A DNA stretch of 64,000 nucleotides from NCBI GenBank assembly GCA_041649955.1, contig JBAZMD010000001.1, forward strand, positions 68,079 to 132,078. The letters run 5' to 3'. Shown here piece by piece: positions 8,760 through 41,506 of the stretch. This DNA comes from Patescibacteria group bacterium (GTDB lineage Bacteria > Patescibacteriota > Patescibacteriia > UBA2591 > JAQUPP01). Made by a program: the position numbers and the translations under genes. The notes beneath the pieces are model-generated. The model was not told the DNA's origin and did no database searches. It saw only the letters and a program-made list of their open reading frames with translations. How positions within the stretch are numbered: position 1 is the first letter of the stretch; each line of letters starts with the position of its first letter.

Positions 8760-10340
8760 TTATTCTGATTCATTTTCATCAATAATAGAACCATCCGGAA
8801 AAGTTTCGGTTGTTGGAATTTCTATCACATTTTCCCATTTATAACCCAATTTTTCAAAAATTTCTCCTGATTTAAAAACTCTTTTACTGCCATTTTCAAT
8901 CAAATAAACCATAGCACTATCCGGATATTTTATTAAAGTTCCATTTGGCCTTGACGAAACCGGAGCGATAAATTGAAAACTATTGATCAACATTTTGAAA
9001 GTAGTCTTAAAATTCGCTTCTTTTTCAGTGCCGACATTATATGAAATCACATAAACATTTTCGCCCTTGGAAATATAAATCGTCAAATGATCCGAACTCC
9101 AAAGAGCCGGCTGATTATTGACAATAACGGCAGTTAATGAACTTTTTTCAGTTGTCGGCGATTGTTTTGAATACCAATCAATCAAAGACAATTGATCGGG
9201 ATTCTTTTCTGCAGTCGCGCTGAAAAATTCTCCGGTATTAGTAATCACTAAAACCTCTTCATTATTGGTTTCCGGAATTGCTCTGGTTATCCATGAAGAC
9301 GGATAGAAAAAACTGTAAGAAAAAGTGGAATTAGTATAAATATTGATCAAACCGGCGGCTGAAAGCTTATTCTCGCCCGTTTGCAGCGGATCGGTTAAAT
9401 TGGCTATTTCTTGGCCGTCGCTAATGCCATCGCCGTCAGTATCAGGATTATTAACGCTGGTGCGATAGATAGTTTCTTCCGTGTCGGTCAAACTGTCTTG
9501 ATCCGAATCAACAGTGGAAGAAATTTGCGGCGCTATTTGAAATATTTCCGTTTGAGGAATTGCCTTGCTTTTTGAAACAATTAAAGCAAAAGTGTCGGAC
9601 GGCAAAAGATCCAATTGAGCAATAATTAAATTATTTTCCACGTCTTGCGTACTTGATAAAGGAGTCCAAATATTATCTTTCAAATAGCCCAAAACAATAT
9701 CATTTTCCCAATTGCTTTCAACAATTTTATTATGATAAAAAGCTCTTAAGGTTGCTGATTTTTGCAAAATAAGATTAGTGGATTGAATTTTATAAGTCCC
9801 TCCAATAACCTTGTAATCATTGAATGTATTTTCATTGGTTATCGGCTCCGAGATTAATTCAATTTTTAAATTCTGGTCAACGGCTCCGGCAGGCAGATAA
9901 AATTCCAGCCAAGAAACAGTTTCGCCCGTTTGATCTTTTATCTCGGCTTTCAAAGTTTGTTCAATTGAAACATTCGCAGCCGGAACAGAGGGAGAATTAT
10001 TTTCTTCGGGCTGAGTAATGGCAGGAATTTGAGTGACAACCGGAATATTAGGATGGTAATTGGTGATCCAAAAATAAAACGCAAAACCTCCGCCGACAAT
10101 AATAATTAGAAGGCATAAAATTAAAATAAGAGATTTATTTTTATCTTTTTTGGACAATTTACGCTGAGCTTTGCGAAATTTCTCCGGCATCACATAAATC
10201 ATTTCTCCAGTGGTTCCATATTGAGTCACTTCTTCAATAATTTCCTTTTTAGCCGCAGGAGGAGGATTAGCAAAAATATCCTGCACCGCAGAAGCGTCTG
10301 TTTTTTGAGATTCCGGTTGTATAGGTGTTTCTTCTGGCAT
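8760..10340 (-). CDS. Membrane-anchored surface protein with a TSP3-type Asp-rich repeat and a C-terminal ~55-aa module shared with the 2308-aa protein
   Basis: 526 aa with a single TM (LILILCLLIIIVGGGFAFYFWI) and the repeats DSDQDSLTDTEE and [12 protein letters not shown]. The C-terminus RPNGTLIKYPDSAMVYLIENGSKRVFKS...GYKW resembles the tail of ORF 30882-37808. Confidence 0.7.
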   Translation of the reverse strand: MPEETPIQPESQKTDASAVQDIFANPPPAAKKEIIEEVTQYGTTGEMIYVMPEKFRKAQRKLSKKDKNKSLILILCLLIIIVGGGFAFYFWITNYHPNIPVVTQIPAITQPEENNSPSVPAANVSIEQTLKAEIKDQTGETVSWLEFYLPAGAVDQNLKIELISEPITNENTFNDYKVIGGTYKIQSTNLILQKSATLRAFYHNKIVESNWENDIVLGYLKDNIWTPLSSTQDVENNLIIAQLDLLPSDTFALIVSKSKAIPQTEIFQIAPQISSTVDSDQDSLTDTEETIYRTSVNNPDTDGDGISDGQEIANLTDPLQTGENKLSAAGLINIYTNSTFSYSFFYPSSWITRAIPETNNEEVLVITNTGEFFSATAEKNPDQLSLIDWYSKQSPTTEKSSLTAVIVNNQPALWSSDHLTIYISKGENVYVISYNVGTEKEANFKTTFKMLINSFQFIAPVSSRPNGTLIKYPDSAMVYLIENGSKRVFKSGEIFEKLGYKWENVIEIPTTETFPDGSIIDENESE

Positions 10341-10351
10341 AGTAAAATTAT

Positions 10352-10951: not shown

Positions 10952-10986
10952 AATAAATTATATTTTATAAATTTATAAAAATTCTA

Positions 10987-26237: not shown

Positions 26238-26266
26238 AATTTTGATTATATTTAAAAAAAATTAAG

Positions 26267-26614: not shown

Positions 26615-26639
26615 ATATTTGTAATGACTAAAAAATTTA

Positions 26640-27065
26640 TTATATTTTTTTTGATTTTTCCATTTTAATTTCTCTGTCCAATTTGATACGTTGAATTGCG
26701 CTCTTTATCCCCTCTGAAAAAATGAGTATTCCCATTCCTGTAACGGATATAGCAAGGGTTTCTGCTGCATGAATTTCCCCTCTTGTTAATGCTTGTCCCA
26801 TAATATTTATCATTTGTTCCTGATTTAAAAATGCTATTCTGGACATTTCTAAACCAGCAAGCGTACTAAGGGTTCCGAAAAATTTAGCAGCCGTATCTTC
26901 CAATTCATGAGGTCTGAGAATATTTAAAACATTTTTTATTTTATCAAAGACAGATTTTTGTTTTTCTTCAAAAAAATCCTTACTTAATTTTTCTGGATTT
27001 TTTTCTTGATCTATTTGTTGTTCCGGAGTTAGTATCTCTTCTGGAATTGGTTTTTCTCCGTTCAT
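26640..27065 (-). CDS. Hypothetical protein (141 aa)
   Basis: ORF with SD GAGGT and a conserved promoter module upstream (27126-27154). No motif recognised. Confidence 0.6.
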   Translation of the reverse strand: MNGEKPIPEEILTPEQQIDQEKNPEKLSKDFFEEKQKSVFDKIKNVLNILRPHELEDTAAKFFGTLSTLAGLEMSRIAFLNQEQMINIMGQALTRGEIHAAETLAISVTGMGILIFSEGIKSAIQRIKLDREIKMEKSKKI

Positions 27066-27125
27066 ATATTTACCTCATTAAGATTGTTTTTAAACAATCT
27101 TTTAATTGATTATTTATCTATTTTC

Positions 27126-27154
27126 AGAATAGCATATTTTAAGGAATTTGTCAA
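27126..27154 (-). promoter_or_regulatory. Promoter module (operon 27065 to 25377)
   Basis: TTGACAaattccttaaaatatgcTATTCT. Confidence 0.65.
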
Positions 27155-27196
27155 TTAACCGTTCAGTTAACGCTAAGGAATGACAATTTCAACTGT

Positions 27197-28054
27197 CTAC
27201 TTTTTAATCTTTAAAATATAAATTGGCATAAATTCCGTATAAGTCCAACGAGGAGCTTCTACAATTGCTTTAATGGCAAAATATTTTTTAAGCATATTCT
27301 CAAATTCTTTTTTAAAAAAAGTAATATGAATGATTTTACCACCGTGTTTCTCTATATTGTGTATTTTCCAAACATCTTCTTTTCTAAGTTTTATTTCCCC
27401 TTTTTCCAAGGCAGGATTAAAAAGATCAAACATTTTTTTCACAGACCATTCTTTCGTTTTTTCGTTGTATATTTTTTTCTTCCATTTTGTATAGTATCCT
27501 AGGGCAAACCAAAACATAAGCCAAGTGGTTTTTTTCTGATTATATTGTTTTTGAAAATAAGAAAAATTTTCTTGCGGTTTCTCCGGCAAATAAATAAAAT
27601 TGCGCGTAATAAAATATCCATCGGGTTTTAAAAGTTTGTTGATGTTTTTTAATAATTCAGGATGAAGTTTAACCGGTATATTATTAAGAGAAGCATCAGC
27701 AAGTACTGCGTCAAAACAATGCTCCGGCAAAAATTGTACCATTTTTAACCAATCGCATCTCATCATTAAATTCTTATCATCGTCTCTAAATTTCATTGTT
27801 TGATACATTGATTCAATGACATTAAAACTTATATCAATTGCTAAAGTTTCGCAGCCCAAACCAATGGCCATGTCTCTTAATTCCGGCGTAGCGCCCAAAA
27901 CTAAAACACGCGGATCCTTTTTTCCCTTAATGGCTAATTTCAAATATTTTTTATAAATATCTAATTCTTCTTTTATCGGCGCTGAAGACCCTTCCCGCTT
28001 AGCGCGGGAAGAAGCTACTTTTTTTATATCCCAACGTGACAATATTGTTTTCAT
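27197..28054 (-). CDS. SAM-dependent methyltransferase, paralog family LG.TPE.RD (copy 1 of 3)
   Basis: 285 aa. Motifs VLVLGATPELRD, AIDIS, VLADASLNNIP, LLKPDGYFITR and tail KKYFAIKAI. Clearly homologous to ORFs 38786 and 39646. Confidence 0.75.
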   Translation of the reverse strand: MKTILSRWDIKKVASSRAKREGSSAPIKEELDIYKKYLKLAIKGKKDPRVLVLGATPELRDMAIGLGCETLAIDISFNVIESMYQTMKFRDDDKNLMMRCDWLKMVQFLPEHCFDAVLADASLNNIPVKLHPELLKNINKLLKPDGYFITRNFIYLPEKPQENFSYFQKQYNQKKTTWLMFWFALGYYTKWKKKIYNEKTKEWSVKKMFDLFNPALEKGEIKLRKEDVWKIHNIEKHGGKIIHITFFKKEFENMLKKYFAIKAIVEAPRWTYTEFMPIYILKIKK

Positions 28055-28095
28055 ATTATTATTTATTATTTTAAACTTTTTTAGTCTTTAATTTA

Positions 28096-28123
28096 AAAAT
28101 AGCAAAATTTAGTCTTTTGTCAA
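28096..28123 (-). promoter_or_regulatory. Promoter module (methyltransferase 27197-28054)
   Basis: TTGACAaaagactaaattttgcTATTTT. Confidence 0.6.
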
Positions 28124-28133
28124 TGATAAAAAT

Positions 28134-28181
28134 GTAAAAAAAAGAGGCCAGATGTTTCCAATGTTGAAAAACACCTGGCCT
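28134..28181 (-). terminator. Intrinsic terminator after the 78-aa gene
   Basis: Stem aggccaggtgttt/aaacatctggcct, followed by a T-run. Confidence 0.7.
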
Positions 28182-28196
28182 GGCAAGGGTTAATTT

Positions 28197-28433
28197 TTAA
28201 GCCCATCTTATTGTGGATCCAATTCTGAATCCACATTCTTCCGCTACTGCAGTCGCCTTTTGAAACTCTTCGTTAAATTTTTGTGCTTGAACAAGATCCT
28301 GATTATCACATGCATTCCGAACTTTAAGAGCCATTTCTTTTAATTTCTGTATAACTCTTCCACTGGCACTATTCTGAGGCCAAATTCCAAAGACGGAATG
28401 AAAATTCTTTATATTTAAATAAATTTTTTTCAT
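28197..28433 (-). CDS. Hypothetical small protein (78 aa)
   Basis: Has its own promoter module, SD AGGAGGAAAG and a downstream hairpin terminator. Confidence 0.6.
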   Translation of the reverse strand: MKKIYLNIKNFHSVFGIWPQNSASGRVIQKLKEMALKVRNACDNQDLVQAQKFNEEFQKATAVAEECGFRIGSTIRWA

Positions 28434-28540
28434 CTTTCCTCCTTTTTCCCTTGTTTTTCAAGGGAATTTCTGAAAAATTTGATTTCTTGTTTTTAAACCC
28501 TTGTTATTAAATTACAAAGAACTTTATCTTTTATGTTAAA

Positions 28541-28569
28541 ATAATAGCATATTTTTTGATTTTTGTCAA
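28541..28569 (-). promoter_or_regulatory. Conserved promoter module (78-aa gene)
   Basis: ggggTTGACAaaaatcaaaaaatatgcTATTAT. Confidence 0.7.
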
Positions 28570-28580
28570 CCCCTTTATTA

Positions 28581-28611
28581 AAAATTCAAAAAGGCGAGAA
28601 TTAATCTCGCC
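28581..28611 (-). terminator. Intrinsic terminator after the Q-rich protein gene
   Basis: ggcgaga-attaa-tctcgcc, followed by tttttgaatttt. Confidence 0.7.
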
Positions 28612-28639: not shown

Positions 28640-30037
28640 CTATTGAGTTTTTTCTTCGTCTGTAGTCGAATCGGTGTTTTGAGTACCGAATTTCTTATCC
28701 ATTAATTGATTGAGTTTGTCTATCTTTGATTGAATAGTAGGATCTATGTTTGTTCTGTTTTTAGTGGCATAATTCATCACTTTGTTTAATTCATTACGGA
28801 CATCATTGATACTCTGGCAAGCGTCTCTGTAACCTTGATTTTCAACAGATTCAATAATCGGATCAATAATCTCTTGAATGGATTGTTTTATTTCCGGATC
28901 TTTCACTCTTAAAAGTTGTTTACTGATATCTTTAAAAGAAGTTACCACGCAATAAATATCACCCGGGTGCATACCTTCGCGCATTGGCGTTAAAGCTTCC
29001 ATTGCATCTTCTATTTCACCGGCTTGATATTTAGTATTGGCTTCAGTTAAAGCGGTTCTTACCTCAACAACATCGGCTTTAATTTTTTCCATATCCAAAC
29101 CTATTTTCTGATAATTTTTATTGACAACCAACTTCTCCGTTTTTTTAAGCTGAGTTTCTATTTGTTTGGTTTCTTTCGGAAATTCAACTTTCATTCTTAT
29201 TTCATTAAGAGTTTCCCAAAGTTGAGCGTCATAAAATTCTTGCATTGCTTCACGTTGAGTCATATCTGTCGGCGGAGTTTTAATATTTTGAGCAAAGATG
29301 TCTAATTGACTATTAATTTCTTGTAATTTAGCTCCTTCTTCGGATAAATTCGGTAATTTTTTCAAAGCAGTGGTTAAAGTTTTAATCTGCTTTTTCATGT
29401 CTTTTATCTGTTTGGTTACTCCTTTAATTTCTTGAGGGTCTACAAAATCGTTTTGATCTTGTCCTTCTTCATTCTGATCCTGATTCTGATTTACCTGAAC
29501 CTGTTTTGGTTGAGTTTGATTTGGTTTAATTTGATTTGATTGAGTGTTGTTCATCGGTTGAGGCATTTGTTGATTTTGCATCGGTTGTCCGGGTTGAGAT
29601 GTCTGTTGGCCTTCGCCTCCTGAAGTTGTTTGTCCGGGTTGTCCTGGCTGATTGATAATTATTTTCTGGCCTTGATTTTGTCCTTGATTCATTGGCTGAT
29701 TCGGCTGATTTCCATTTTGATTAAAATTCATTCCCGGCTGTTGGGTACCATTCATTGGTTGACTTTGCATTGGTTGTCCAGGCTGAAAATTTTGCTGATT
29801 GTTTGGTTGATTATTGGGTATTTGTTGGCCTTCATTTCCTTGCAAAATTTGTCCTTGCTGATTTTGCATTGGTTGATTAATAATTGTTTTCTGCTCCTGA
29901 TTTATCGGGGGCAAGGGTGATAAAATCTCAGCATTTTGAGCAATAGTCCGGCTAATTAAAACCGCGCCCGCGGCTATAGAAGCCAAACCGATCGCTAAAG
30001 GAATTTGAATAAAAGCTTTTTTGTTGTTGATTTGCAT
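28640..30037 (-). CDS. Membrane-anchored Q/N/P/G-rich low-complexity protein with a coiled-coil C-terminal half
   Basis: 465 aa counted from ATG 30037 (MQINNKKAFIQIPLAIGLASIAAGAVLI). A ~170-aa QPGQPMQNQ-type tract is followed by a heptad-rich region. The 56 extra upstream codons in the ORF track overlap mpg and were trimmed. Confidence 0.7.
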   Translation of the reverse strand: MQINNKKAFIQIPLAIGLASIAAGAVLISRTIAQNAEILSPLPPINQEQKTIINQPMQNQQGQILQGNEGQQIPNNQPNNQQNFQPGQPMQSQPMNGTQQPGMNFNQNGNQPNQPMNQGQNQGQKIIINQPGQPGQTTSGGEGQQTSQPGQPMQNQQMPQPMNNTQSNQIKPNQTQPKQVQVNQNQDQNEEGQDQNDFVDPQEIKGVTKQIKDMKKQIKTLTTALKKLPNLSEEGAKLQEINSQLDIFAQNIKTPPTDMTQREAMQEFYDAQLWETLNEIRMKVEFPKETKQIETQLKKTEKLVVNKNYQKIGLDMEKIKADVVEVRTALTEANTKYQAGEIEDAMEALTPMREGMHPGDIYCVVTSFKDISKQLLRVKDPEIKQSIQEIIDPIIESVENQGYRDACQSINDVRNELNKVMNYATKNRTNIDPTIQSKIDKLNQLMDKKFGTQNTDSTTDEEKTQ

Positions 30038-30125
30038 AAATTTATTATTATTTAATATATTTAGAAACCTTTCTATATTTAATAGTAACCCAAAACAAAA
30101 CATTTGACAAGTGGATAAGGGTGGG

Positions 30126-30668
30126 CTAATTTTTAAGCGAAAATCTCCATTTTTTGTTTGCCCAATAAGGTCCGGCATAATCAATCCCAACTCTCTTAGT
30201 CGCAAAAATGCGGGATTTATTTATTTTTTCTCCTCTGTCTTCCAACCAAAATCTTTTGCTTTCAATAACATCTTCGCCGTAAAATGATTTGTCCAATTTT
30301 AAATATCTACAAAGTTTTCCCGGCCCGGAAGTTAAATTTTTTTCTTTAGAAGCTAGAGCGCGAATTAAAACGCATTCCGGCTTGCCTGATTTAGAAGTAG
30401 TGATATTCAATTGCCAATACATGCCATAAACCAAATAAATATAAATATGCCCGCCCTTGAAATATTCAGCAATATTTCGAGAAGTCATTCGATTGTTATA
30501 AGCATGGCAAGCTCTGTCTTTTGGGCCGACATAAGCTTCTGTTTCAATAATTTTTCCTTCTAATTTTTTATTGCCGATTTTTCTGACAATATATTTCCCC
30601 AATAATTCCTTGGCTACTTTTAAAGTCGGCCGAGTATAAAAATTTCTGGTTAATTTTTTTATTTTCAT
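30126..30668 (-). CDS. mpg: 3-methyladenine DNA glycosylase (AAG/Mpg family)
   Basis: 180 aa. Motifs ETEAYVGPKDRACHAY and YIYLVYGMYWQLNI, typical of Mpg. Confidence 0.85.
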   Translation of the reverse strand: MKIKKLTRNFYTRPTLKVAKELLGKYIVRKIGNKKLEGKIIETEAYVGPKDRACHAYNNRMTSRNIAEYFKGGHIYIYLVYGMYWQLNITTSKSGKPECVLIRALASKEKNLTSGPGKLCRYLKLDKSFYGEDVIESKRFWLEDRGEKINKSRIFATKRVGIDYAGPYWANKKWRFSLKN

Positions 30669-30881: not shown

Positions 30882-33800
30882 TTATTTCGCGGCTAAGAAT
30901 TTCGGCGTGACTAAATTCTCGGCAAAATCTGAAATTGTTCCGCCGTCAGAATAAGTTTCAGCCTTAGAAATAGTCATTACCGGCACTTTGCTGTAACCAT
31001 TGTTGGTTAAAGCTTTGGCGGATAATTTATATTTCTTGCCGTTCTGAATCAGATAAATCTGAGAAGTTCCCGTGTATTTAACCAATGTTCCATTAGGATG
31101 TTTAGTCGTGGAATCAATCGTATCGCCTAAAGGATAATTGAATTTGGATAATAAATCATCAGGCACCCAAGTCACCAATTTCCATTTCGGATCATTGAAA
31201 AGTTTCTGATAAATCGCTGAAGATTTAACCGGTCTCAATTTGCCGTCAGAAACCATGAATACTGCCGAAGCGCTTAAACCGTGAAGCGATGTAGTCTTGC
31301 CTCTGAATAATGAACCGTCGCGGAATGTCATTGCTACGCCTTCAGAATATTTCGCAAATTCTTCAGAAGTAACCTTCTTGACTGTTGAGAAATTGGATGG
31401 ATAACCCCAAGAGAGATAAACATTAAGATGCGGGAAAACGTGCGCCTTGCCGTCCAAAATCATATAAACCGCGCCTGGTTGAGCAGTACAAGTCGGACAA
31501 ATAACCAAATCTCTATTTTTGAGATTATAAGTTATAACTTCTGCTGTTTCTTCTGATTCAGAAATAATTATTGCTGAAATTATTGAAGAGAGATTAAAAG
31601 TCTTATCTCTGAAACGGATATAAACCACTTTTTCTCCCTTACCAACTGGTAGTAACCAAGAACGAGTAGCTTGATACGGTTCCCAATTAATACCGACAAA
31701 ATCAATCGTATTACTAATCATCATTTCCGCGGCATCAGTAGCAGTAATGTTTAAAGTAACATTTCTGGAAGTAGTTTTCGCGGCACCACTATTTATCTTT
31801 AAGGATAAATCTTTTGGACCAAGATTACCTGCATTGCCACCACCTCCTGAACTGCCACTCATTGGGGTCGAATCTCCGCCAGCAGTAACAAACTTTCCTC
31901 CGGTAATACCGCCAGGTGTAAAATGGTTTGTGGTAACAATTATAACATTATTAGTTGCATCGCGAACCACTGATTTATAATTTTCCCAAGTGTTTGTGGT
32001 GTCATCAAAATATTTTGGCGTAATATCAGCTTCAGTATATCCATAATCTGTAATTAAATCCGGATCATAAGGGAATGTAATCTTTACGTCATTATCAAAT
32101 TGAGTGATTTCTTGACCAGTAGAGTCCTTAGCCGTGAAATCATAGTTAACGCCAAGCGGTTTATCTTTAGCATCCGGTTTCACTGATACCGTAGTTTGAT
32201 TTTCATCACCAACAGTCGGCGTAATAGTTACGGTAACTGTGCCACTGCTGGCTAAAGCTCCGGCTGGAATTTCAAGCGTCAGACCATTTGTAAGTTCAAT
32301 AGTTTTACTGTCTGAAGCGTTGAAAGTCGTAGTTTTAGCTTCAGGAACGGCAAGACCTGTGGTAACAAGAGTTAAATTCTTAGTTTGAGCGCCTGCTACG
32401 GTTATAACTTCAGTCGCAGCGCTTTCATAAAGGACTCCATCAATTTTGGCCGTGGCCTTAACATACCATGTTTCACCGGACTTAACTTTTAAAGTATAAG
32501 TTCCGTCAGAAGCCATTGTACCGGTTCCCTTATCCTCAGACCAAGCTTGTATCATTGCTTGTTTTCTAACGCTGTCTAAAGTAACCTCACCGGTGATAGT
32601 GGCATCTGATAAACTGAATTGAAGATCCTTACCTGTTACATTGGAATCGCCAACCGTCACACTGAGTAATGGCGGGTTAATCAAATCTCTCGCATCCCAA
32701 GGAGGAATACCGGCACCAATTTTGAAAGTACCACTGGTAACATTTAAAGTATAAGTGCCGTCATTTCCGGTAAAAGTACCAACACCCAAACCGCCCGGAC
32801 CCTTAAAATCATTTTTGGTCGTTTCATCACCAAAGTCAGCATAGACCCAAACTCCACTCATACCAACATCATCCGGATCCGTGATTGTACCGCTGATTGT
32901 TTTATCAAGTTTTTTAAGTTGGAAATTACGAGTAGTTGTACTATCGGCAATAACGGTTGATTTTACGTCTTCGGCTACTATTTTGTATTTATCATTATCA
33001 TCTCCAAAATTCATCATCGGATCAATAAAAGCGTCAACGTACCAACTGCCTGCTGAAACTTTTAATGAATATTTATCATTAACACTGCTTGGAGCAAATT
33101 CTGTTTGCGACCAGCCGCCATTTTCTTTATCACCATTGATAAAAGCGCGAACTCCTGTCACAACCGTATCTGTTCCTGCAGTATAAGAACTATCGCTATT
33201 AGTATCAAGATAAAATTTACCTTCAATCGTAGCATTATTCGGTGCCACCACTAAATCAATTTCTTTACATCCGGTTGTTTCGTCAGTACAAGTATCGCTT
33301 TCACCAACAGTAACAGTTTTAGTTACGGTTAAAGTATATTTAGAACCCGGAGGCGTATTTAAACCTAATTCATAACTGCCGAGCGGAACTTTAATTTCAG
33401 TATAACCATTAGCTAATCCTCCGCCGGCAAAACCACCTTTATCCATACCTGCTCCCATTGCTCCGCCGCCACCGCTGCCGCCACCTACAGCTGTTCCACC
33501 ACTACCTGCATCGCCGCTTCCACCTGCCATCATTTTCGGATCACCGAAATCAATAAAATCATTTACTGTCGGATCCGTATCTTTAACCCAAACTCCACCC
33601 CAAATATCGGAAACACGATTACCGTCAGCATCCACTACATTTACTTTAAGCAGACCATCGGCTACCTTTAATAAAAAGTCATTATTATCAGAAGTTTGAT
33701 TGGCGGTTATTGTTACTTGTTGCGGACCACCTTGATAAATATATTGAGTTGACATTGGCATAATCATTACGCCCCAATTTCCTTCACTGACAGTTAAATC

Positions 33801-36800
33801 AAATCTGCCGGTATTAGAATCTGTTTGTGTATTAGCCCAGCCCGGTCCATTCATTTGCCAAGCATTAACCATCACACTGCCAATTGCATTACCGGCCGAA
33901 TCTGTAACCGTTCCTTTAATATGAGCATTCTTTGCTGTTAAAATAAGTGTGCCTGCGTCAGTTGTTTGTTCAGAAATAGCTTTGATTTTAACCGGAGTGG
34001 AACCGCCATAACTCTGACCTTGTTCGCCCCAGTTTGGATTAGCCACCAAATCATAAGTACCAGCTGGAACTTTAAAAGTAAAACGTCCATCAGAATCAGT
34101 ATTGGCACCATTGCCACCACCCATCATACCGCCGCTATTGGCCATTACCCAAGAATTGGCAATTGCCGTAGCACCGGTTGGATCTTTAACTAAACCTGTA
34201 ATAATAGCATTGGCCACTTGAACTTCAAAATCCAAACCAGCATCAAGTATAGTAGCGCCTCCCGGACAATTTCCCACTGTACCGCGGCATTCCGTGCTGC
34301 CATCTTCGGTAAAAGTAGTTCTCTTTGGAGATTCATTATAAACCCAATCAGGTTGACCCATGCTCCAATCAGGATTTACACTTAACCACCAGCCGCCGCC
34401 GGCAAGTTTTAAAGTATATTCACCACTTGAATTTGTTAATGTTTCAAAATGTCCACCTCCCATATCGCGATTAGCTTGAACGCGGGCATTAGCGACTAAT
34501 GCACCGCTGCCCTTTTTAGTCACTGTACCGGTTAAAGTTTTTGTTGGGACAGTTAAGGTAATTAAATTATTTGCCTGAGCCACATTGGCCACTTTAACTG
34601 TGCCTACGTCATCAGCAACATCAACGGTTAATCCGCTTGGTTGAATCCAAGCTTTTTCACCGCCCCAAGGCAAATTGATTTCCATGGATAATCCGGTGGC
34701 ATTGGTTAAACCGCCGATTCGGAAATAACCTTGATCATCAGTTGAAGCACCACCCTGATTTTGCCACATTTGATCATGAATCATAATCCAAGACCATTGG
34801 ACAGGTTGATCATCCGCAGTTCCGGCAACTTCATCCGCACCCGGATTCATTACTCTTCCGGTAACTTGCGGCGTACCAAGTATGAGTTTACCGCCGGTTC
34901 CATAAGTCACACCTAAATCTAAATTAGAAGTTCCGGCAGCTACGGCAGAGGAAATTGTAATATTAGAATATTTTTTTGTTGAATAATTACGATAAACAGC
35001 TTGTTCTTCAGGCGTCCCCCAACGTGGAGCTTCAATTTCTAAAGCATAAGTTCCTGCTGTCACACCACCAAAAGAGAATTGACCGTTCTGATTAGTGTTT
35101 GTGCCATACCAACCACCCGTAGTACCGCCTTGCATTGGTCCTTCAATATGGAAATTAATCCAAGCATTAGCCACAGTTGTAGTAGTATTTGGAATAACAA
35201 CCGTACCGCTAATATTCGGAGTGCTTAAAATTATATTTTTGGTTCTGCTTGATTGAGAACTGGTAACTGTAACATTCTGAACAAGTTTTCTCCCGCAAGT
35301 AATATTTCCGCAACCATTCCAAGGATTTGCTTCCACTTCATAAGTACCAATAGTCACACCGCCAATGGCATAATTTCCATTAGCATCTGTTTGTGACCAT
35401 TGAGAACCGGACATTGAACCTTGTGATCGCATATTAATACCAACATTAGTTGCACCGATATCAGGATAACCCACCGGATCATCGCATTCAGCTTGAGTCA
35501 CAGTTGAATTGTCGTCATGTTTCGGTTTGCAAACACGACCGGTTAAACCATTAACTGTCGGGTCGCTTAACAAAACAAGTAAACTATTATTAGCAATTGT
35601 CAAAGCAGTACCCGGATCTGATACCTCGGTAATAGTAGTTCCGGCAACACTTACTACCATGCCTTGCGGCGCAGCATAAAGACTGCCGTATTGAGTATTG
35701 ACATTAAAATTCCAGCTGCCCGTAGGAACATTTAAACTAAATGTTCCATCACTTTGAGCACTGGCGCCATAACAACTACCGGCTGATTGATAAGGACAAA
35801 AATCAATCCAAATTCCGCTTTGTCCGGTTGTACCGGTTGGATCTTTAACTACACCAGTAACATTGGGTGCTGATAAAGTAAATGCGTCATCATCAACGCT
35901 ATCAAGAGTGTCAGCTTGATCTTTTAAATCATTAGAAGTAGTTGAAGTAATGGAAACTGAAAAATTACCGCTGGCACAAGCACTGCCGCTCGCCGGTTGA
36001 ATTCGAAGATTATAAGTACCAAGTGCCACGCCACCAAGAGAAAAATTACCACTATCATCAGTATTTACACCATACCAAGAACCATCTTTATCCATATTTA
36101 TCCAAGCGACGGTTGTTACACCACCGCATTTTACTTTTCCAAAAACATTTGGCAAAGCAAAAGTTTTATTTCCCAAATCAGTAATTTGTCCATCCGTAAC
36201 ATCAATGGCAAATTCAGCAGTTCTTGTTCTTGGATAACTTCTAAAGTCGCCGCTGTATGGCGGCTCAATTTCTAAAATATAATGAGTACTGTCTGTCACT
36301 CCGCCAAAATAAACTATGCCATCAGCATCGGTCTGTGCCCATTGATTGTAAGACCAATCCATAGTATGAAGACCAATATTGGCATAAGGCACTGGCAAAC
36401 CAGGCTGAGGATTACTTGCCGTAGCAGTATCACCTAAAGTACCAGGAGCCTTAATCGTTACTTTAACATTTTGAGCGGATAAATTGATATTAATGCCGGT
36501 TGCAGTTTGACCTGAAGTTAAACATTGAGAAGTTCTAACGCTTTTATATTGTAAAACTCTGTCTTGATAATCTTTGGGTCTGGCTTCAATTTCATAACAT
36601 TGGCTGCTGGTATCATTTGGAACATAAAGTTTCCATGTTCCGTTTGGACCGGTTGTTGTTCTTTGCTCATAGTCCCAAGTATAAGGACGAGCAACCACTT
36701 CTACGCCTTCCAATAATGTTGCGCCACTGGGAGATTTAACCGTACCGGAAAGAGTGGCTGTTCTAAAAGCTTGGGTGGCTAGTGTTGCCACTGAACCCAC

Positions 36801-37808
36801 CGTAGCTGTTTGACTGCTTAACTTGGAGGGCGCCACATAAGTCGCGCCGGCCGGGGTGCTGAATTGTATATTATAACTTCCGGTCGCACTTAATAATAAA
36901 GCATATTTGCCATTGGAATGAGTTTCCCCAAGCACGACATTTCCCATTTGTCCGGGCGTAAAAGATTCAACCTGGACTCTATCTATGTCACCGGCCGTAT
37001 CTGAGGTAAGACTACCTATAAATATGCCTTGCGTGCTATTCCAAATTATAAATGGTCGTGAATCTGAAACACGACGCGTATTCAAATCACTAATTATTAT
37101 ATCTACGCGGCCGTTTAATCCGGTTGGAATTGTAGCCGTAAGTTCAGTAGCTCCGGCAGTTGCAGGCGTGGATGTTACACTTCCTCCGTTAAAATTCCAA
37201 TATATTTCTGTTGCGTCAGTTGAGGTGGAATAATTAGAACCGGTAATCGTTACTGTATCGCCGACATTGCCGCACGGATAACCATTGCAAAGATCAGACT
37301 CAGTAGTATTGGTTATATAATTGATAATCGGATCAATAGAAGCGCTAACAGTATTGTTGGCAGTAAAATCTTCTATAGTTTGAGTTCCTGCTAAATTTTT
37401 AATATCTCCGGCTGTCATCTGCCAAGTTTGTCCTTCGCTTAATTTTAAATTTTTTAAACCGTAAATTCTTAAACGATAATCATTCTCGCCCGCCTGAATA
37501 CTTTGAGTTGACATATCATAAGGACTGAATCGACTTAATGTTCTGTCTGTTAATCCCGCTCCTGTTTCAAAAATAAAATTACGCAAATCTGTCGCGTAAT
37601 TGGTTGCACTTCCTGCTTCGGTTGTTGAAGATGGGGTTGTTTCTGCGGAAAATTGTCCGTTGAATGTAATTTCCGCTGAAGTTGTCGAGACCGTAATATC
37701 GGTCACGGCTATTGGTGCTAATGCACTCACTGATGTGGACAGCCCCATTGACCACAACATGGTCGTGGCTGTCACAAAAATTGAAAAAAACTTTTTTGTG
37801 TTGTTCAT
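30882..37808 (-). CDS. Giant (2308 aa) secreted surface protein made of a dozen or more prealbumin/CarboxypepD_reg-like beta-sandwich repeats, Gly-rich linkers and three C-terminal ~55-65-aa modules
   Basis: Signal peptide MNNTKKFFSIFVTATTMLWSMGLSTSVSALA. Recurrent units such as ITGLVKDPTGATAIANSWVMA...TDSDGRFTFKVPAGTYDLVANP. Gly tracts (GGSGGGGAMGAG, SGSSGGGGNAG). C-terminus HPNGTLVKYTGTSQIYLIQNGKKYKLS... Confidence 0.85.
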   Translation of the reverse strand: MNNTKKFFSIFVTATTMLWSMGLSTSVSALAPIAVTDITVSTTSAEITFNGQFSAETTPSSTTEAGSATNYATDLRNFIFETGAGLTDRTLSRFSPYDMSTQSIQAGENDYRLRIYGLKNLKLSEGQTWQMTAGDIKNLAGTQTIEDFTANNTVSASIDPIINYITNTTESDLCNGYPCGNVGDTVTITGSNYSTSTDATEIYWNFNGGSVTSTPATAGATELTATIPTGLNGRVDIIISDLNTRRVSDSRPFIIWNSTQGIFIGSLTSDTAGDIDRVQVESFTPGQMGNVVLGETHSNGKYALLLSATGSYNIQFSTPAGATYVAPSKLSSQTATVGSVATLATQAFRTATLSGTVKSPSGATLLEGVEVVARPYTWDYEQRTTTGPNGTWKLYVPNDTSSQCYEIEARPKDYQDRVLQYKSVRTSQCLTSGQTATGININLSAQNVKVTIKAPGTLGDTATASNPQPGLPVPYANIGLHTMDWSYNQWAQTDADGIVYFGGVTDSTHYILEIEPPYSGDFRSYPRTRTAEFAIDVTDGQITDLGNKTFALPNVFGKVKCGGVTTVAWINMDKDGSWYGVNTDDSGNFSLGGVALGTYNLRIQPASGSACASGNFSVSITSTTSNDLKDQADTLDSVDDDAFTLSAPNVTGVVKDPTGTTGQSGIWIDFCPYQSAGSCYGASAQSDGTFSLNVPTGSWNFNVNTQYGSLYAAPQGMVVSVAGTTITEVSDPGTALTIANNSLLVLLSDPTVNGLTGRVCKPKHDDNSTVTQAECDDPVGYPDIGATNVGINMRSQGSMSGSQWSQTDANGNYAIGGVTIGTYEVEANPWNGCGNITCGRKLVQNVTVTSSQSSRTKNIILSTPNISGTVVIPNTTTTVANAWINFHIEGPMQGGTTGGWYGTNTNQNGQFSFGGVTAGTYALEIEAPRWGTPEEQAVYRNYSTKKYSNITISSAVAAGTSNLDLGVTYGTGGKLILGTPQVTGRVMNPGADEVAGTADDQPVQWSWIMIHDQMWQNQGGASTDDQGYFRIGGLTNATGLSMEINLPWGGEKAWIQPSGLTVDVADDVGTVKVANVAQANNLITLTVPTKTLTGTVTKKGSGALVANARVQANRDMGGGHFETLTNSSGEYTLKLAGGGWWLSVNPDWSMGQPDWVYNESPKRTTFTEDGSTECRGTVGNCPGGATILDAGLDFEVQVANAIITGLVKDPTGATAIANSWVMANSGGMMGGGNGANTDSDGRFTFKVPAGTYDLVANPNWGEQGQSYGGSTPVKIKAISEQTTDAGTLILTAKNAHIKGTVTDSAGNAIGSVMVNAWQMNGPGWANTQTDSNTGRFDLTVSEGNWGVMIMPMSTQYIYQGGPQQVTITANQTSDNNDFLLKVADGLLKVNVVDADGNRVSDIWGGVWVKDTDPTVNDFIDFGDPKMMAGGSGDAGSGGTAVGGGSGGGGAMGAGMDKGGFAGGGLANGYTEIKVPLGSYELGLNTPPGSKYTLTVTKTVTVGESDTCTDETTGCKEIDLVVAPNNATIEGKFYLDTNSDSSYTAGTDTVVTGVRAFINGDKENGGWSQTEFAPSSVNDKYSLKVSAGSWYVDAFIDPMMNFGDDNDKYKIVAEDVKSTVIADSTTTRNFQLKKLDKTISGTITDPDDVGMSGVWVYADFGDETTKNDFKGPGGLGVGTFTGNDGTYTLNVTSGTFKIGAGIPPWDARDLINPPLLSVTVGDSNVTGKDLQFSLSDATITGEVTLDSVRKQAMIQAWSEDKGTGTMASDGTYTLKVKSGETWYVKATAKIDGVLYESAATEVITVAGAQTKNLTLVTTGLAVPEAKTTTFNASDSKTIELTNGLTLEIPAGALASSGTVTVTITPTVGDENQTTVSVKPDAKDKPLGVNYDFTAKDSTGQEITQFDNDVKITFPYDPDLITDYGYTEADITPKYFDDTTNTWENYKSVVRDATNNVIIVTTNHFTPGGITGGKFVTAGGDSTPMSGSSGGGGNAGNLGPKDLSLKINSGAAKTTSRNVTLNITATDAAEMMISNTIDFVGINWEPYQATRSWLLPVGKGEKVVYIRFRDKTFNLSSIISAIIISESEETAEVITYNLKNRDLVICPTCTAQPGAVYMILDGKAHVFPHLNVYLSWGYPSNFSTVKKVTSEEFAKYSEGVAMTFRDGSLFRGKTTSLHGLSASAVFMVSDGKLRPVKSSAIYQKLFNDPKWKLVTWVPDDLLSKFNYPLGDTIDSTTKHPNGTLVKYTGTSQIYLIQNGKKYKLSAKALTNNGYSKVPVMTISKAETYSDGGTISDFAENLVTPKFLAAK

Positions 37809-38785: not shown

Positions 38786-39640
38786 TTATTTTTTTCTTAA
38801 TTGATAAATGGTGTAGAATTTGGAAAAAGCGGGATGTTTAACCGGCTCTTTTATTTTTTTAACAATCGTAAAATATTTTTTAACCAGCCGGTCAAACATT
38901 TTTTCCGGCAGCATAGTAACGCGATGCGGCTGATTGTAAAAATCAAAAGTCATTAAATCATATTCTTTTTGAGTGATTTCTTTGTTTTTTAATTTCTCGC
39001 CTAAAAACAGATTAAATTTGTTCATCTCGGTAGTGTATTCTTTCTTGTTGTAAAATCGCGGATCTGAATAAGCGCAGCTTTCCCAAATATAAATTTTATT
39101 ATTCAATGATTTGAAATAATTCGGCTGGCGCTTGCATTTTTCAATCACGCTTTCCGCGGTCTGCAATATCGGACTCGCGTTGGTAACGGTAATAATCAAT
39201 TCTCCTCCCGGTTTCAGAATAGTTTTCATTGCCTTAAAAAATTGTTCGTACAACTCAAGATTGACCAAATTATTGGTTACGGCATGGCCGATAATGCAAT
39301 CAAATGTTTTGGGAAGAAAATATTTTGTCGCTTCTGTCCAAAGACCGTTGGTTATTTTTTCTTTGCTTTCTATTTTTTTTAAACCGTTCATTGTTTCAAC
39401 CATATTTTGGCTGAATTCCAAAAGCGTGACCTTAAATTTCATTTTTGCCAGACAATCCCGAATGGCCGGCGTACAGCCTAAAACCAAGGCCTTATTGCCT
39501 GATTTCTTTTTAATGATTTTTAAAATTTTAGCGCAAGCGGCAATATGCTTTTTTGAAGGCACAAAAGGCGGCGGAATTTTGGCATAGGTTTGAGTATACC
39601 CTTCTTGCCACACTTTTTTATTTATTGCTTCTTTTTCCAT
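38786..39640 (-). CDS. SAM-dependent methyltransferase, paralog family LG.TPE.RD (copy 2 of 3)
   Basis: Motifs ALVLGCTPAIRD, LLEFS, ILKPGGELIITV and tail KKYFTIVKKI. The start is set at ATG 39640, 5 nt after the upstream stop. The ORF-track start at 39673 would overlap the upstream gene by 28 nt. Confidence 0.7.
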   Translation of the reverse strand: MEKEAINKKVWQEGYTQTYAKIPPPFVPSKKHIAACAKILKIIKKKSGNKALVLGCTPAIRDCLAKMKFKVTLLEFSQNMVETMNGLKKIESKEKITNGLWTEATKYFLPKTFDCIIGHAVTNNLVNLELYEQFFKAMKTILKPGGELIITVTNASPILQTAESVIEKCKRQPNYFKSLNNKIYIWESCAYSDPRFYNKKEYTTEMNKFNLFLGEKLKNKEITQKEYDLMTFDFYNQPHRVTMLPEKMFDRLVKKYFTIVKKIKEPVKHPAFSKFYTIYQLRKK

Positions 39641-39645
39641 GTTAG

Positions 39646-40479
39646 TTATTTTTTTAAAAAATAAATTGGGCATTGGTGAACAAAAGGATGATCTGTACCG
39701 TATTTAACGGCAGAAATCTTGAAATATTTTTTCATCATTTTCTCCCCTTCTTTTTCCGGCAGAGTCCACCAAGTTTTGCCCAACGGCCATTGTTGATGAA
39801 AAATCTTAATCAATTTGGCTATTTGCTTTTTTCTGGCCGCGTTCTTTTCATCTTGCCAAGATTTTTTAAGCGCTGAACTGATGCCGTCCGTACTCGTACT
39901 ACTGTCTTTTGCTTTCCAAACAACAAATAATCCGCCATAAGCAAATTCACTGATACTTTCTTGATTAAATTTTTTCTTAATCACGAGATTAATAAATTCT
40001 TGAATTGATTTTTTGGGAAAAATAGGAAAAAGATGGCGGGTAATAAAACAACCGCCCGGCTTTAAAACCTCTCTGATTTTAGCCAAAAATTTCGGCTGTA
40101 ATTTAATCGGAATATTACAAATAACAAAATCTCCCAGAACAAAATCATAATAATTTTGAGCCACGGGCATAGTCAGCCAGCCGGCCTTAATCCAAGTTTC
40201 CTTGTCTGCATTTTTTTGATATTTCACCCATTTGGTCATAGCCATTAGCATATCCAAACTAATATCAACGCAAGTCACTTCTGCTTTTTGGCGATGCACC
40301 AAGTCGCGAAATTCGGGCGTTCCGCCTAAAATCAAAATTTTAGCCGGTTTTTTATGTTGAGCAATGAATTTTTCTATAATCTGGCATTCGCTTTTTGACG
40401 GCCGGTTGGGCGGAGTATAAACTTGCCATTGATGTGCCATTTTTTGCGCGTGATAATAAGCTACTTTTGGTTCTGCCAT
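39646..40479 (-). CDS. SAM-dependent methyltransferase, paralog family LG.TPE.RD (copy 3 of 3)
   Basis: 277 aa. Motifs ILILGGTPEFRD, CVDIS, VLKPGGCFITR and tail KKYFKISAV. Confidence 0.75.
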   Translation of the reverse strand: MAEPKVAYYHAQKMAHQWQVYTPPNRPSKSECQIIEKFIAQHKKPAKILILGGTPEFRDLVHRQKAEVTCVDISLDMLMAMTKWVKYQKNADKETWIKAGWLTMPVAQNYYDFVLGDFVICNIPIKLQPKFLAKIREVLKPGGCFITRHLFPIFPKKSIQEFINLVIKKKFNQESISEFAYGGLFVVWKAKDSSTSTDGISSALKKSWQDEKNAARKKQIAKLIKIFHQQWPLGKTWWTLPEKEGEKMMKKYFKISAVKYGTDHPFVHQCPIYFLKK

Positions 40480-40669: not shown

Positions 40670-41506
40670 TTAATTATATTTTTGAAGAATAAAATAAAAA
40701 TATTTTCTTTTTCCATTTTTAAATGAATTGCATAACTCTGAATCTTTAACTCCCGCGAATTGCTTGCCGAGATTTTGCAAAAATTTCGGCAAAAATTGCC
40801 TAACAAGTTTCATCCTTCTTTCATTATCCAAATTCAATGCCCTAAAAACATTTTCCGTTATATCTTCTTTTTTTATTATTTTCAATTTTGATTTATTAAT
40901 GGAGTCAAAAAAAGATTGAATTAATTCCCGGCTTCTGAAATCGGCGAATAAAAAATATCCTTTAGGTTTTAATATTCTTTTCGCTTCCTGTAAAAATTTA
41001 TTAAAATTAGGGTAAGAATGAGAAGATTCTATGTTTATCGCCGCGTCAAAACTTTCATCTTCAAAAGGAATTTTTATGGCGTTTCCGTATTCAAATTTTA
41101 AATTTTTTTCATAATGATGCTCTCTGTCAAATTTTATTTCTGCTTTGGAATTATCTATGCCGACGATCAGTTTGGGCTTGAAATATCTGGCAATGAAAGA
41201 AGTTCCGCCGCCCTTCCCGCATCCTACTTCTAAAACTTTTTTATCTTTTATATTAATAGAACTCACTACCTTATGATACAACTGGGCGCAATATCTGTTT
41301 TCTTCATCAATTTTTTCCAATCTTAATTTTTCCCGGTATTGATATCCGTAATTCAAAAAAATCACCTCTCCTTTTGAATCAATTTTTGAAAGATGATTAT
41401 ACCACTTATTCACCACTAAAGACTGGCCCTTAAGATAAATCTTGTTGACTAAATTAAAAAAATTTAATATCTTTATTAATTTTTTAATCCAATCTTTCTT
41501 CGTCAT
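40670..41506 (-). CDS. Class I SAM-dependent methyltransferase (Methyltransf_11-like)
   Basis: 278 aa. Motif I VLEVGCGKGGGTSFIA, then VGIDNS, FDAAINIESSHSY and ILKPKGYFLFADF. Confidence 0.8.
   Translation of the reverse strand: MTKKDWIKKLIKILNFFNLVNKIYLKGQSLVVNKWYNHLSKIDSKGEVIFLNYGYQYREKLRLEKIDEENRYCAQLYHKVVSSINIKDKKVLEVGCGKGGGTSFIARYFKPKLIVGIDNSKAEIKFDREHHYEKNLKFEYGNAIKIPFEDESFDAAINIESSHSYPNFNKFLQEAKRILKPKGYFLFADFRSRELIQSFFDSINKSKLKIIKKEDITENVFRALNLDNERRMKLVRQFLPKFLQNLGKQFAGVKDSELCNSFKNGKRKYFYFILQKYN

Follow-up and report, generated by a model that had tools for sequence, protein, structure and literature searches.

An EccB-repeat-like module as a candidate cell-wall anchor of a giant surface protein in Patescibacteria

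How a giant exported protein is kept on the cell that makes it is the question raised by a 2308-aa open reading frame in the 64,000-nucleotide stretch of Patescibacteria DNA analysed here (hereafter the window). Patescibacteria (CPR) constitute a large share of bacterial diversity and, to our knowledge, hardly anything has been established on how they display envelope proteins. Members of the Parcubacteria type are generally regarded as single-membrane cells with a wall, and the window encodes MreC, a PBP2-type transpeptidase and an alanine racemase, which indicates that this organism makes peptidoglycan. We consider it reasonably probable (about 60%) that a triple of small modules at the C-terminus acts as a non-covalent cell-wall anchor keeping a giant acidic fibre on the producer cell, a proposal in which we infer both the ligand and the binding to the cell's own wall. 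The gene is organized as follows.

30882..37808, minus strand: giant surface-protein gene, 2308 aa, with an ATG start (from the list of open reading frames)
37716..37808, minus strand: putative signal peptide, aa 1-31, cleavage ...SVSALA/PIA (sequence reading)
37017..37715, minus strand: N-terminal head, aa 32-264, including a weak match to IPT/TIG (aa 180-240)
32379..37016, minus strand: 15 CarboxypepD_reg or transthyretin-like beta-sandwich units, aa 265-1810 (PF13620 and self-profile)
33396..33545, minus strand: Gly-rich tract 1, aa 1422-1471, with at least 11 Gly per 25-aa window
31917..32378, minus strand: beta-rich domain, aa 1811-1964, ending ...TTNHFTPGG, without a Pfam match
31821..31916, minus strand: Gly-rich linker 2, aa ~1965-1996, ahead of the C-terminal cassette (sequence)
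31554..31820, minus strand: small domain, aa 1997-2085, without a Pfam match at E<=10
31326..31517, minus strand: module 1, aa 2098-2161 (profile E=2.3e-10; modelled as b-b-b-a-b-a)
31101..31325, minus strand: module 2, aa 2162-2236 (profile E=8.5e-8; modelled as b-b-b-a-b-a)
30933..31100, minus strand: module 3, aa 2237-2292, canonical and common to ORF 8760 (BLASTP; profile E=9.7e-21)
30882..30932, minus strand: C-terminal tail, aa 2293-2308, ...LVTPKFLAAK, a conserved short helix, plus the stop codon

The start codon and the length of the frame are real, because the ortholog P0039 (2291 aa, 74.6% identity) can be aligned from residue 1. A syntenic locus in the Patescibacteria MAG STD1_195 (L001) is collinear across 6.7 kb at ~87% nucleotide identity. 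An exact match to the 2308-aa sequence was sought and is absent from the records. Judged by eye rather than with a dedicated predictor, the N-terminal stretch MNNTKKFFSIFVTATTMLWSMGLSTSVSALA/PIA looks like a Sec signal peptide, in agreement with a preliminary description of this locus; it is the sole N-terminal hydrophobic stretch, and the N-termini of homologs are alike. A scan of the whole sequence found no further hydrophobic or transmembrane-like segment. The protein also lacks LPxT[GAS] and NPxTG motifs as well as a hydrophobic segment at its C-terminus, which places it outside the sortase-anchored class. Given the lack of both a TM segment and an LPXTG motif, there is no alternative anchor to the one proposed here.

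Between the signal peptide and the C-terminal cassette lies a long array of beta-sandwiches. Pfam PF13620 (CarboxypepD_reg) matches the protein with E=1.2e-40 and 138.1 bits (gathering cut-off 32.3), eight stretches being significant one by one, which establishes membership in this family. An iterated self-built profile resolves 15 units, in keeping with the earlier count of at least a dozen CarboxypepD_reg or prealbumin-like sandwiches. The units have a median pairwise identity of 21% (maximum 41%) and are divergent and of old origin. A tandem repeat was looked for in the array DNA and is absent, and no unit-sized indels occur relative to P0039 (largest gap 9 aa) or to L001 (collinear). Repeat-number variation, which had been raised as a possibility, is thus not seen between these relatives, and the array is old and stable; its candidacy as a contingency locus is ruled out on the same grounds. 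Nine close pairs of Cys residues in the array are consistent with extracytoplasmic disulfides.

The remaining parts of the body are less readily classified. In the head, Pfam TIG matches aa 180-240 with E=0.0063, which is under the curated cut-off. Both of the Gly-rich tracts noted previously are present: the first separates unit 11 from the core of unit 12, and at the second the identity with P0039 falls from 70-93% to 48-64%. The type of beta-rich domain found at aa 1811-1964 also stands before the triple in P0011-P0013, and the small domain at aa 1997-2085, which is probably Ig-like, accompanies the triple, being located directly ahead of it in P0002, P0010 and P0019 too. A stalk of beta-sandwiches is ordinary for a giant surface protein. 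With its signal peptide, long stalk and terminal anchor, the protein resembles other giant proteins with CarboxypepD_reg arrays, but its anchor would be the module triple rather than an LPXTG/sortase signal, SLH domains, a T9SS C-terminal domain or a TM helix.

The three modules were delimited with a profile that was seeded only with the module of ORF 8760-10340, a second protein in the window, and was grown on database homologs with the 2308-aa protein excluded; its E-values are those after one round against a single target. This independent profile matches exactly three modules and no other region of the 2308-aa protein and, together with an AlphaFold2 model, it bears out the earlier observation of three tandem C-terminal modules of ~60 aa. 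Module 3 matches the C-terminus of ORF 8760-10340 by BLASTP (39% identity over 59 aa, E=2e-11), so the homology claimed for the last module is real. The preliminary description had allowed that this similarity might prove insignificant in profile comparison, and the profile value for module 3 shows the opposite. Compared directly, pair by pair, modules 1 and 2 show weak similarity to modules 3 and 4 (E 0.15 to 9e-6), and for this reason the membership of the first two is argued from profile and structure. This weakness speaks for reading the C-terminal resemblance as a matter of chance or composition, with no real domain behind it. However, such a reading is already refuted by the match between module 3 and ORF 8760, by the thousands of family members described below, and by the recovery of all three modules with an independent profile and confident models of identical topology; we give it practically no chance of being correct.

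Module 2 is the most conserved part of the triple, with the motif WVPDDLLxKFxYPLG, and holds most of the invariant columns of alignment A1. A CPTC insertion in module 1 is lineage-specific, being present in L001 and missing from P0039. The 'L..L.TP' of the tail is conserved among triple homologs and corresponds to a helix (212-215) in the model of the triple. The triple is basic (pI 9.47, net +10), and the body is acidic (pI 4.45, net -84).

Within the window, only the 2308-aa protein and ORF 8760-10340 bear the module. The second protein has the following features.

8760..10340, minus strand: second module-bearing envelope protein, 526 aa (Pfam scan and sequence)
8781..8951, minus strand: single module, aa 464-520 of ORF 8760-10340 (profile E=4e-23)

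ORF 8760-10340, which is 100% identical to a Patescibacteria MAG protein at NCBI (P0178), consists of a cytoplasmic N-terminus, a TM helix (aa 66-95), a TSP3 repeat, a weak PsbP-like region and the C-terminal module. One or two C-terminal modules are kept in 57 of the 59 members of its family. Because the protein already has a membrane anchor, its module (pI 5.2) is not needed for retention.

These two proteins represent a far larger group. Scanned directly against Pfam and NCBIfam to E<=10, the C-terminus gave no meaningful match. The module profile matches representatives of 4522 clusters (50% identity) at E<=1e-3, 1463 of them with E<=1e-10, with 1-17 copies per protein, and all informatively labelled sources are Patescibacteria. 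We therefore take the module to constitute a large independent domain family without a dedicated Pfam or NCBIfam model. An N-terminal hydrophobic export or anchor segment is present in 141 of the 163 Met-starting members, and the module mostly occupies one end, N- or C-terminal, of the exported proteins that carry it. Across genomes, triples occur either at the C-terminus of proteins of more than 2000 aa or just behind the signal peptide of ~1250-aa proteins, which are Thr/Ala/Gly-rich and Cys-poor and, by sequence, look like S-layer-type structural proteins.

Among 48 family members, fusions of the module to SpoIID (five), Amidase_2 (three), YkuD (one) and M23 (one) were found, and Amidase_2 and SpoIID domains recur alongside 7-8 consecutive modules in P0096, P0100 and P0091. 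Other partners include protease S8, CAP, PKD, FN3, SH3_3 and GT2 domains. Fusion of the module to peptidoglycan enzymes follows the classic layout of an enzyme joined to wall-binding repeats. The proposal that the shared module is an anchoring or targeting domain used across surface proteins is thereby supported in the form of a portable, predicted envelope-targeting domain, given the independence of the family, its terminal position in exported proteins, the peptidoglycan-enzyme fusions and a predicted fold like those of EccB and phage lysins.

Structure prediction, suggested as a check in the preliminary description, gave confident models for the triple (pLDDT 93.6, pTM 0.87) and for the single module of ORF 8760 (pLDDT 87.8). 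The scores of the triple model indicate that the three modules form one defined unit, in which a predicted beta-beta-beta-alpha-beta-alpha fold recurs three times. The best PDB matches of the models are EccB repeats and the cell-wall-binding domains of LysIME-EF1, PlyCB and Lys170; in Foldseek, the best 11 matches are all EccB, with a lowest E of 2.6e-5. Repeats of EccB1 are described as 51-57 aa in length, with a 4-stranded sheet and two helices, and as PlyCB-like (PMC4769845). The module, as modelled, has the same sheet and helices in a unit of ~55 aa and by its structural matches belongs to the EccB-repeat or PlyCB-like fold class.

At the level of sequence, the relationship to EccB (PF05108) is detectable and distant. 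P0038, which carries 17 modules, matches PF05108 with 39.3 bits (cut-off 27), the modules of three proteins align to one segment of that profile (positions 177-249), and 3 of 115 isolated single modules match it weakly. Neither window protein is matched by PF05108, with the C-terminus searched to E<=10, and profile searches against all PDB sequences with the single module (A4) and the triple (A2) returned only noise at E<=10. The relationship is one of remote homology of the repeat and not of family membership, and the module adds a new sequence variant to an already known class of folds. The earlier caveat that the module might belong to an already characterized wall-binding family consequently holds for remote homology and fold, and fails for family membership.

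The module shares its size, its secondary structure and a detectable sequence relationship with repeats R1-R4 of EccB, but the architectures differ. EccB is a single-pass membrane protein and a T7SS component with four repeats arranged round a central beta-sheet domain, whereas the Patescibacteria modules are free-standing tandem units that occur in many unrelated exported proteins. The EccB architecture (an N-terminal TM helix, the central beta-sheet domain and four quasi-twofold repeats; PMC4769845) is not found in the plain C-terminal tandem, which has no central domain, and a Pfam scan of 22 neighbouring ORFs in the window showed none of the T7SS genes EccC, EccD, MycP or WXG100.

An alternative explanation is that the modules serve as spacers or in assembly between proteins, much as the EccB repeats build the periplasmic part of the ESX machine, and that the triple docks the fibre on an S-layer lattice or a partner protein. 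EccB is the strongest structural and sequence link, and it has a demonstrated structural role in the ESX periplasmic assembly (PDB 7NPS and 7NP7). Its wall binding is unproven and stands as a hypothesis only (PMC4769845). Arrays of 8-17 modules exist and could serve as stalks. Furthermore, two triples fused to GT2 lack signal peptides and TM segments alike and would accordingly be cytoplasmic, and these would be easier to explain by a protein or lipid-linked ligand than by binding to the sacculus. However, the recurrent fusion to peptidoglycan hydrolases in a lysin-like layout would be unexpected of a pure scaffold, and the great diversity of partners suggests a generic envelope ligand over a specific protein partner. 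We regard a purely structural role as improbable.

The phage lysin domains provide the closest functional parallels. The PlyCB (4f87), LysIME-EF1 (6ist) and Lys170 (7d55) domains are attached to peptidoglycan hydrolases, as are the modules of many family members, and they act as multivalent assemblies on the wall. They differ from the module in having no detectable sequence similarity to it, and in achieving multivalency through rings of 4 or 8 separate chains, whereas the module proteins carry at least three modules in one chain. The ligand of PlyCB is a wall polyrhamnose (bioRxiv 10.1101/2021.03.19.436156). The LysIME-EF1 domain forms a tetrameric ring needed for lysis; recognition of the cell wall is proposed to lie with the flat, positively charged face of this ring (PMC7098653). 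Phage homologs were sought because they might be expected for a lysin wall-binding domain, and none turned up: the triple had no relative in IMG/VR by pattern scan, and tblastn of the module against 50,697 GenBank phages gave no match.

Since these nearest analogues attack a wall that is foreign to them, either from outside or during lysis, the module might likewise dock onto another cell, at its wall or a surface glycan, namely a cell that an episymbiotic CPR bacterium uses as host or prey, in which case the giant protein would be a secreted or tethered adhesin. The many Amidase_2, SpoIID and M23 fusions could attack host walls, the giant protein might be released given that it has no other anchor, and cultivated Patescibacteria are all reported to be obligate episymbionts (PMC12206443). 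However, SpoIID, YkuD and amidases equally belong to the normal housekeeping enzymes of the wall, and the S-layer-like ~1250-aa proteins bear the triple first after the signal peptide, where attachment to their own wall is expected. ORF 8760 is held in its own membrane with the module ~370 residues away, which fits the cell's own wall better. We judge docking onto a foreign wall to be unlikely, though it deserves serious consideration. Present data do not separate anchoring in the producer's own wall from targeting of another cell's wall.

Anchoring in the producer's wall would proceed as follows. The protein would be exported through its Sec signal peptide, and an acidic body of ~2000 residues, comprising the head, 15 transthyretin-like beta-sandwiches and two more beta domains, would jut from the cell. 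A Gly-rich hinge would join this body to the basic C-terminal cassette, in which three EccB-repeat or PlyCB-like modules are predicted to pack as one compact unit. The triple would then bind non-covalently to a glycan of the wall, which may be peptidoglycan or a wall-linked polysaccharide, and retain the fibre without a sortase signal or membrane anchor. Three fused modules would provide in cis the multivalency that related phage domains obtain through 4-mer or 8-mer rings. Through its single module, the membrane-anchored ORF 8760 would bridge membrane and wall.

In Firmicutes, three tandem SLH modules of ~55-60 aa form one compact unit that binds a secondary cell-wall polymer. The triple would play a part like that of these SLH domains in S-layer proteins, as a compact three-module unit at either terminus of surface proteins and wall enzymes. 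The likeness is one of functional analogy only, because SLH domains are helical and unrelated in fold, and neither module protein has a Pfam SLH match.

The module occurs on giant fibres, S-layer-like proteins and wall enzymes across thousands of protein clusters and, if it is a wall anchor, would be a simple marker by which to recognize the CPR surface proteome from sequence. A fluorescent version would be a candidate reagent to label or capture uncultured CPR cells, and the evolutionary link would bear on the function of EccB in mycobacterial type VII secretion. A broader projection, which we offer tentatively and would not bet on, is that the EccB-repeat-like module is the generic non-covalent wall anchor of Patescibacteria, a counterpart of SLH, LysM and CWB2. 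The triple would then mark the main wall-attached surface proteins of the Parcubacteria type, with one giant fibre carrying a C-terminal triple and one ~1250-aa S-layer-like protein carrying an N-terminal triple per genome. If true, this would give the first handle for finding CPR S-layer and surface-fibre proteins by sequence. It would also mean that the periplasmic repeats of mycobacterial EccB descend from an ancient wall-binding module, which would back the unproven contact between EccB and peptidoglycan. In the literature, we found no report tying Patescibacteria or CPR to PlyCB or EccB, and one paper on S-layer evolution mentions CPR in passing only.

Some observations count against the anchor reading, namely the window proteins' failure to reach any Pfam threshold for the module, the merely hypothetical wall binding of EccB, the cytoplasmic-looking GT2 fusions, a family that is not basic, an adjacency to mreC-pbp2 that is not conserved, and the lack of phage homologs. 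The idea that the modules are basic as a rule was rejected, because the family, unlike the studied triple, has a median pI of 5.4; any argument from charge is limited to the triple of the 2308-aa protein. ORF 8760 lies 17 nt upstream of mreC-(mreD?)-pbp2, and a functional tie to peptidoglycan synthesis on this basis was also rejected, because only one of four divergent loci keeps mreC downstream. In the other three, the relatives of ORF 8760 are followed by GT2/Wzy or by ybeY-ftsA-ftsZ. What is conserved across these loci is the upstream pair, a T4SS_pilin-like giant protein and a TSP3 protein.

The three tandem modules of ~60 aa that end the 2308-aa protein belong to an uncatalogued, very abundant domain of Patescibacteria, here fused as a compact triple. 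The protein overall is ordinary in kind: a giant surface fibre made of beta-sandwiches. Its gene model is sound, because the database homolog P0039 (2291 aa) matches it from residue 1 onward (74.6% identity) and the homologous locus L001, in the Patescibacteria MAG STD1_195, is collinear with the gene (~87% nucleotide identity over 6.7 kb).

Features of the large protein
30882..37808, minus strand: entire protein, 2308 aa (ORF call)
aa 1-31, minus: Sec-type signal peptide (...SVSALA/PIA; sequence reading)
aa 32-264, minus: head region; sole match IPT/TIG, below Pfam threshold
aa 265-1810, minus: CarboxypepD_reg / transthyretin-like beta-sandwich array (Pfam and self-profile)
aa 1422-1471, minus: first Gly-rich tract
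aa ~1965-1996, minus: second Gly-rich tract, the linker before the C-terminal cassette
aa 1997-2085, minus: small unassigned domain opening the C-terminal cassette
aa 2098-2161 (31326-31517), minus: module 1
aa 2162-2236, minus: module 2
aa 2237-2292, minus: module 3
after aa 2292, minus: short conserved tail closing the C-terminal cassette

The signal peptide, the dozen or more CarboxypepD_reg-type units and the two Gly-rich tracts proposed in the preliminary description were all recovered. Pfam CarboxypepD_reg matches at E=1.2e-40, with eight stretches significant on their own, and an iterated self-profile resolves 15 units. Their median pairwise identity is 21%, and the units are ancient. 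Variation in repeat number, proposed as a check, was not seen: a search for DNA-level tandem repeats in the gene found none and no unit-sized indel separates the protein from P0039 or L001, and therefore such variation is no feature of this gene. The 18 Cys residues fall into nine close pairs, which suits an extracytoplasmic location. A sequence scan beyond aa 1-31 found no further hydrophobic segment and no LPXTG-type motif.

As previously claimed, module 3 is homologous to the C-terminus (module 4) of the window's second module-bearing protein, ORF 8760-10340 (39% identity over 59 aa, E=2e-11). Because modules 1 and 2 resemble modules 3 and 4 weakly in pairwise comparison, an independent profile was seeded with the ORF 8760 module alone and grown on database homologs, with the large protein left out. 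After one iteration it matched that protein exactly three times (E 2.3e-10, 8.5e-8 and 9.7e-21) and found no module elsewhere in the window outside these two proteins. Modelled confidently by AlphaFold2 (pLDDT 93.6, pTM 0.87), the final 223 residues repeat the order three strands, helix, strand, helix three times over, and the high pTM implies that the modules would pack into one body.

No Pfam or NCBIfam model or PDB sequence matches the module directly. The best 11 Foldseek matches are exclusively chains of the type VII secretion (ESX) protein EccB (E down to 2.6e-5, probability ~1), with low TM-scores because the geometry between repeats differs. Among 115 single modules tested on Pfam, PF05108 (EccB) was the sole family matched by more than one; the 17-module homolog P0038 scores 39.3 bits (curated cut-off 27, E=4.2e-10), and modules in three proteins match the same segment, profile positions 177-249. 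We regard the module as remotely homologous to the EccB repeat and as part of the PlyCB-like fold class, with a predicted fold resembling that of a lysin wall-binding domain (CBD). Membership of the module-bearing proteins in the EccB family itself was rejected, since the TM helix, central domain and T7SS context are all missing, the last among the 22 neighbouring window ORFs scanned with Pfam. On a rival reading, the module may instead serve in protein assembly, as EccB does in the ESX machine; wall binding by EccB is speculation in the literature (PMC4769845).

Four lines of indirect evidence, namely fold relatives, peptidoglycan-enzyme fusions, exported terminal placement, and a basic triple in a protein lacking any other anchor, point to a module that would bind a cell-wall polymer, in agreement with the anchoring or targeting role first proposed. 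Those of its fold relatives whose function is known are wall-binding domains. The phage lysin component PlyCB binds streptococcal wall polysaccharide at its polyrhamnose backbone (bioRxiv 10.1101/2021.03.19.436156), and the CBD of LysIME-EF1 assembles into a tetrameric ring needed for lysis, whose flat, positively charged face was proposed by its authors to recognize the cell wall (PMC7098653). Whereas these phage domains achieve multivalency through rings of 4 or 8 subunits, the large protein would do so in cis, through three modules in one chain. Neither an IMG/VR pattern scan with the triple nor tblastn against 50,697 GenBank phages found phage copies of the module.

Among 48 members, fusions to SpoIID (5/48), Amidase_2 (3/48), YkuD (1/48) and M23 (1/48) occur, and P0096, P0100 and P0091 join runs of 7-8 modules to both Amidase_2 and SpoIID, matching the standard design of catalytic domains with wall-binding repeats. 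An N-terminal hydrophobic segment is present in 141 of the 163 Met-starting members, and modules favour the ends of exported proteins. The wall may be that of a host cell rather than the producer's. Two proteins from outside the window, P0026 and P0027, carry the triple joined to a glycosyltransferase family 2 (GT2) domain; since neither has a signal peptide or TM segment, their modules would be cytoplasmic, which is at odds with a wall anchor that acts solely outside the cell.

In the large protein, the triple (pI 9.47, net +10) contrasts with the body (pI 4.45, net -84). This charge argument is not general, because basic charge is not family-wide (median module pI 5.4; ORF 8760 module, 5.2). 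Since ORF 8760 is already anchored by a TM segment, its module would link the membrane to the wall and not serve as a means of retention. The layout of the triple parallels, by analogy and not homology, the triple SLH anchor on Firmicutes surface proteins. Peptidoglycan machinery (MreC, a PBP2-type transpeptidase and alanine racemase) is encoded within the window.

When 1.84 billion cluster representatives were searched exhaustively with the profile, 4522 proteins matched at E<=1e-3, or 1463 at the stricter limit of E<=1e-10, and the 177 family proteins retrieved carry 1 to 17 modules each. The triple recurs as a unit (45-60% identity) in Patescibacteria proteins, either joined to unrelated partners or alone behind a signal peptide. 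All 30 loci in species-representative genomes come from MAGs, and informative labels are Patescibacteria, Parcubacteria, Falkowbacteria or Jacksonbacteria throughout. Ten GTDB-representative MAGs with the Patescibacteria-type triple (L004, L005, L010, L012, L016, L017, L020, L022, L024 and L026) bear the title 'uncultured Gammaproteobacteria bacterium' (TPA assemblies), probably a default or mistaken label.

Two layouts dominate: a C-terminal triple on proteins of >2000 aa, and ~1250-aa proteins in which the triple immediately follows the signal peptide (L019, the 1243-aa ORF of STD1_195; L007, L015, L021, L023, L024 and L029). Several MAGs have one protein of each, the shorter class being accompanied by a giant protein that ends in the triple. 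The ~1250-aa proteins are rich in Thr/Ala/Gly/Val and poor in Cys, and the representatives scanned (P0050-P0065, P0077) contain no Pfam domain. Judging by composition and layout, they may be structural proteins of S-layer type, anchored by the triple.

From the second Gly-rich linker on (small domain and triple; aa ~1997-2308, window 30882-31820), identity to P0039 is 48-64%, versus 70-93% in the body; L001 shows no such drop (81-97%; body range 79-97%). It seems that the C-terminal cassette was either swapped or evolves independently. A CPTC motif (Cys2104/Cys2107), inserted in module 1 of the large protein and L001 and absent from P0039 and other triples, could represent a disulfide or a metal site peculiar to this lineage.

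ORF 8760 lies within a conserved three-gene envelope cassette at 8760-18165 (minus strand).

Genes of the envelope cassette
10987-18165, minus: giant protein, 2392 aa; VirB2-like T4SS_pilin N-terminus, Big_5, Laminin_G_3, CBM_4_9
10352-10951, minus: small TSP3-repeat protein
8760-10340, minus: TM/TSP3/PsbP-like/module protein

Its gene order is kept in four of four divergent Patescibacteria loci (L031-L034), one with two TSP3 genes; the genes downstream differ. ORF 8760-10340 sits 17 nt upstream of mreC-pbp2, an adjacency withdrawn as support for a wall role, as this neighbourhood is kept in one of four divergent relatives. Between mreC and the transpeptidase gene, in the position expected of mreD, is ORF 7430-7930 (minus, 166 aa, no Pfam match); L031 has an unannotated 186-aa gene in the equivalent place.

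The window has 35% G+C, with almost all large ORFs on the minus strand. Five methyltransferase paralogs flank the large gene (25377-26237, 27197-28054, 38786-39673, 39646-40479 and 40670-41506). Missing from L001, the closest relative, are the gene for methylpurine-DNA glycosylase (30126-30668) and ~1.7 kb of the SAM-methyltransferase region 25386-28588. ORF 28640-30205 (minus, 521 aa), without a Pfam match, is hydrophobic in an N-terminal segment and contains a long low-complexity region rich in Gln, Asn and Pro; its real start probably lies further downstream, because starting at the TTG gives an 80-nt overlap with the glycosylase ORF.
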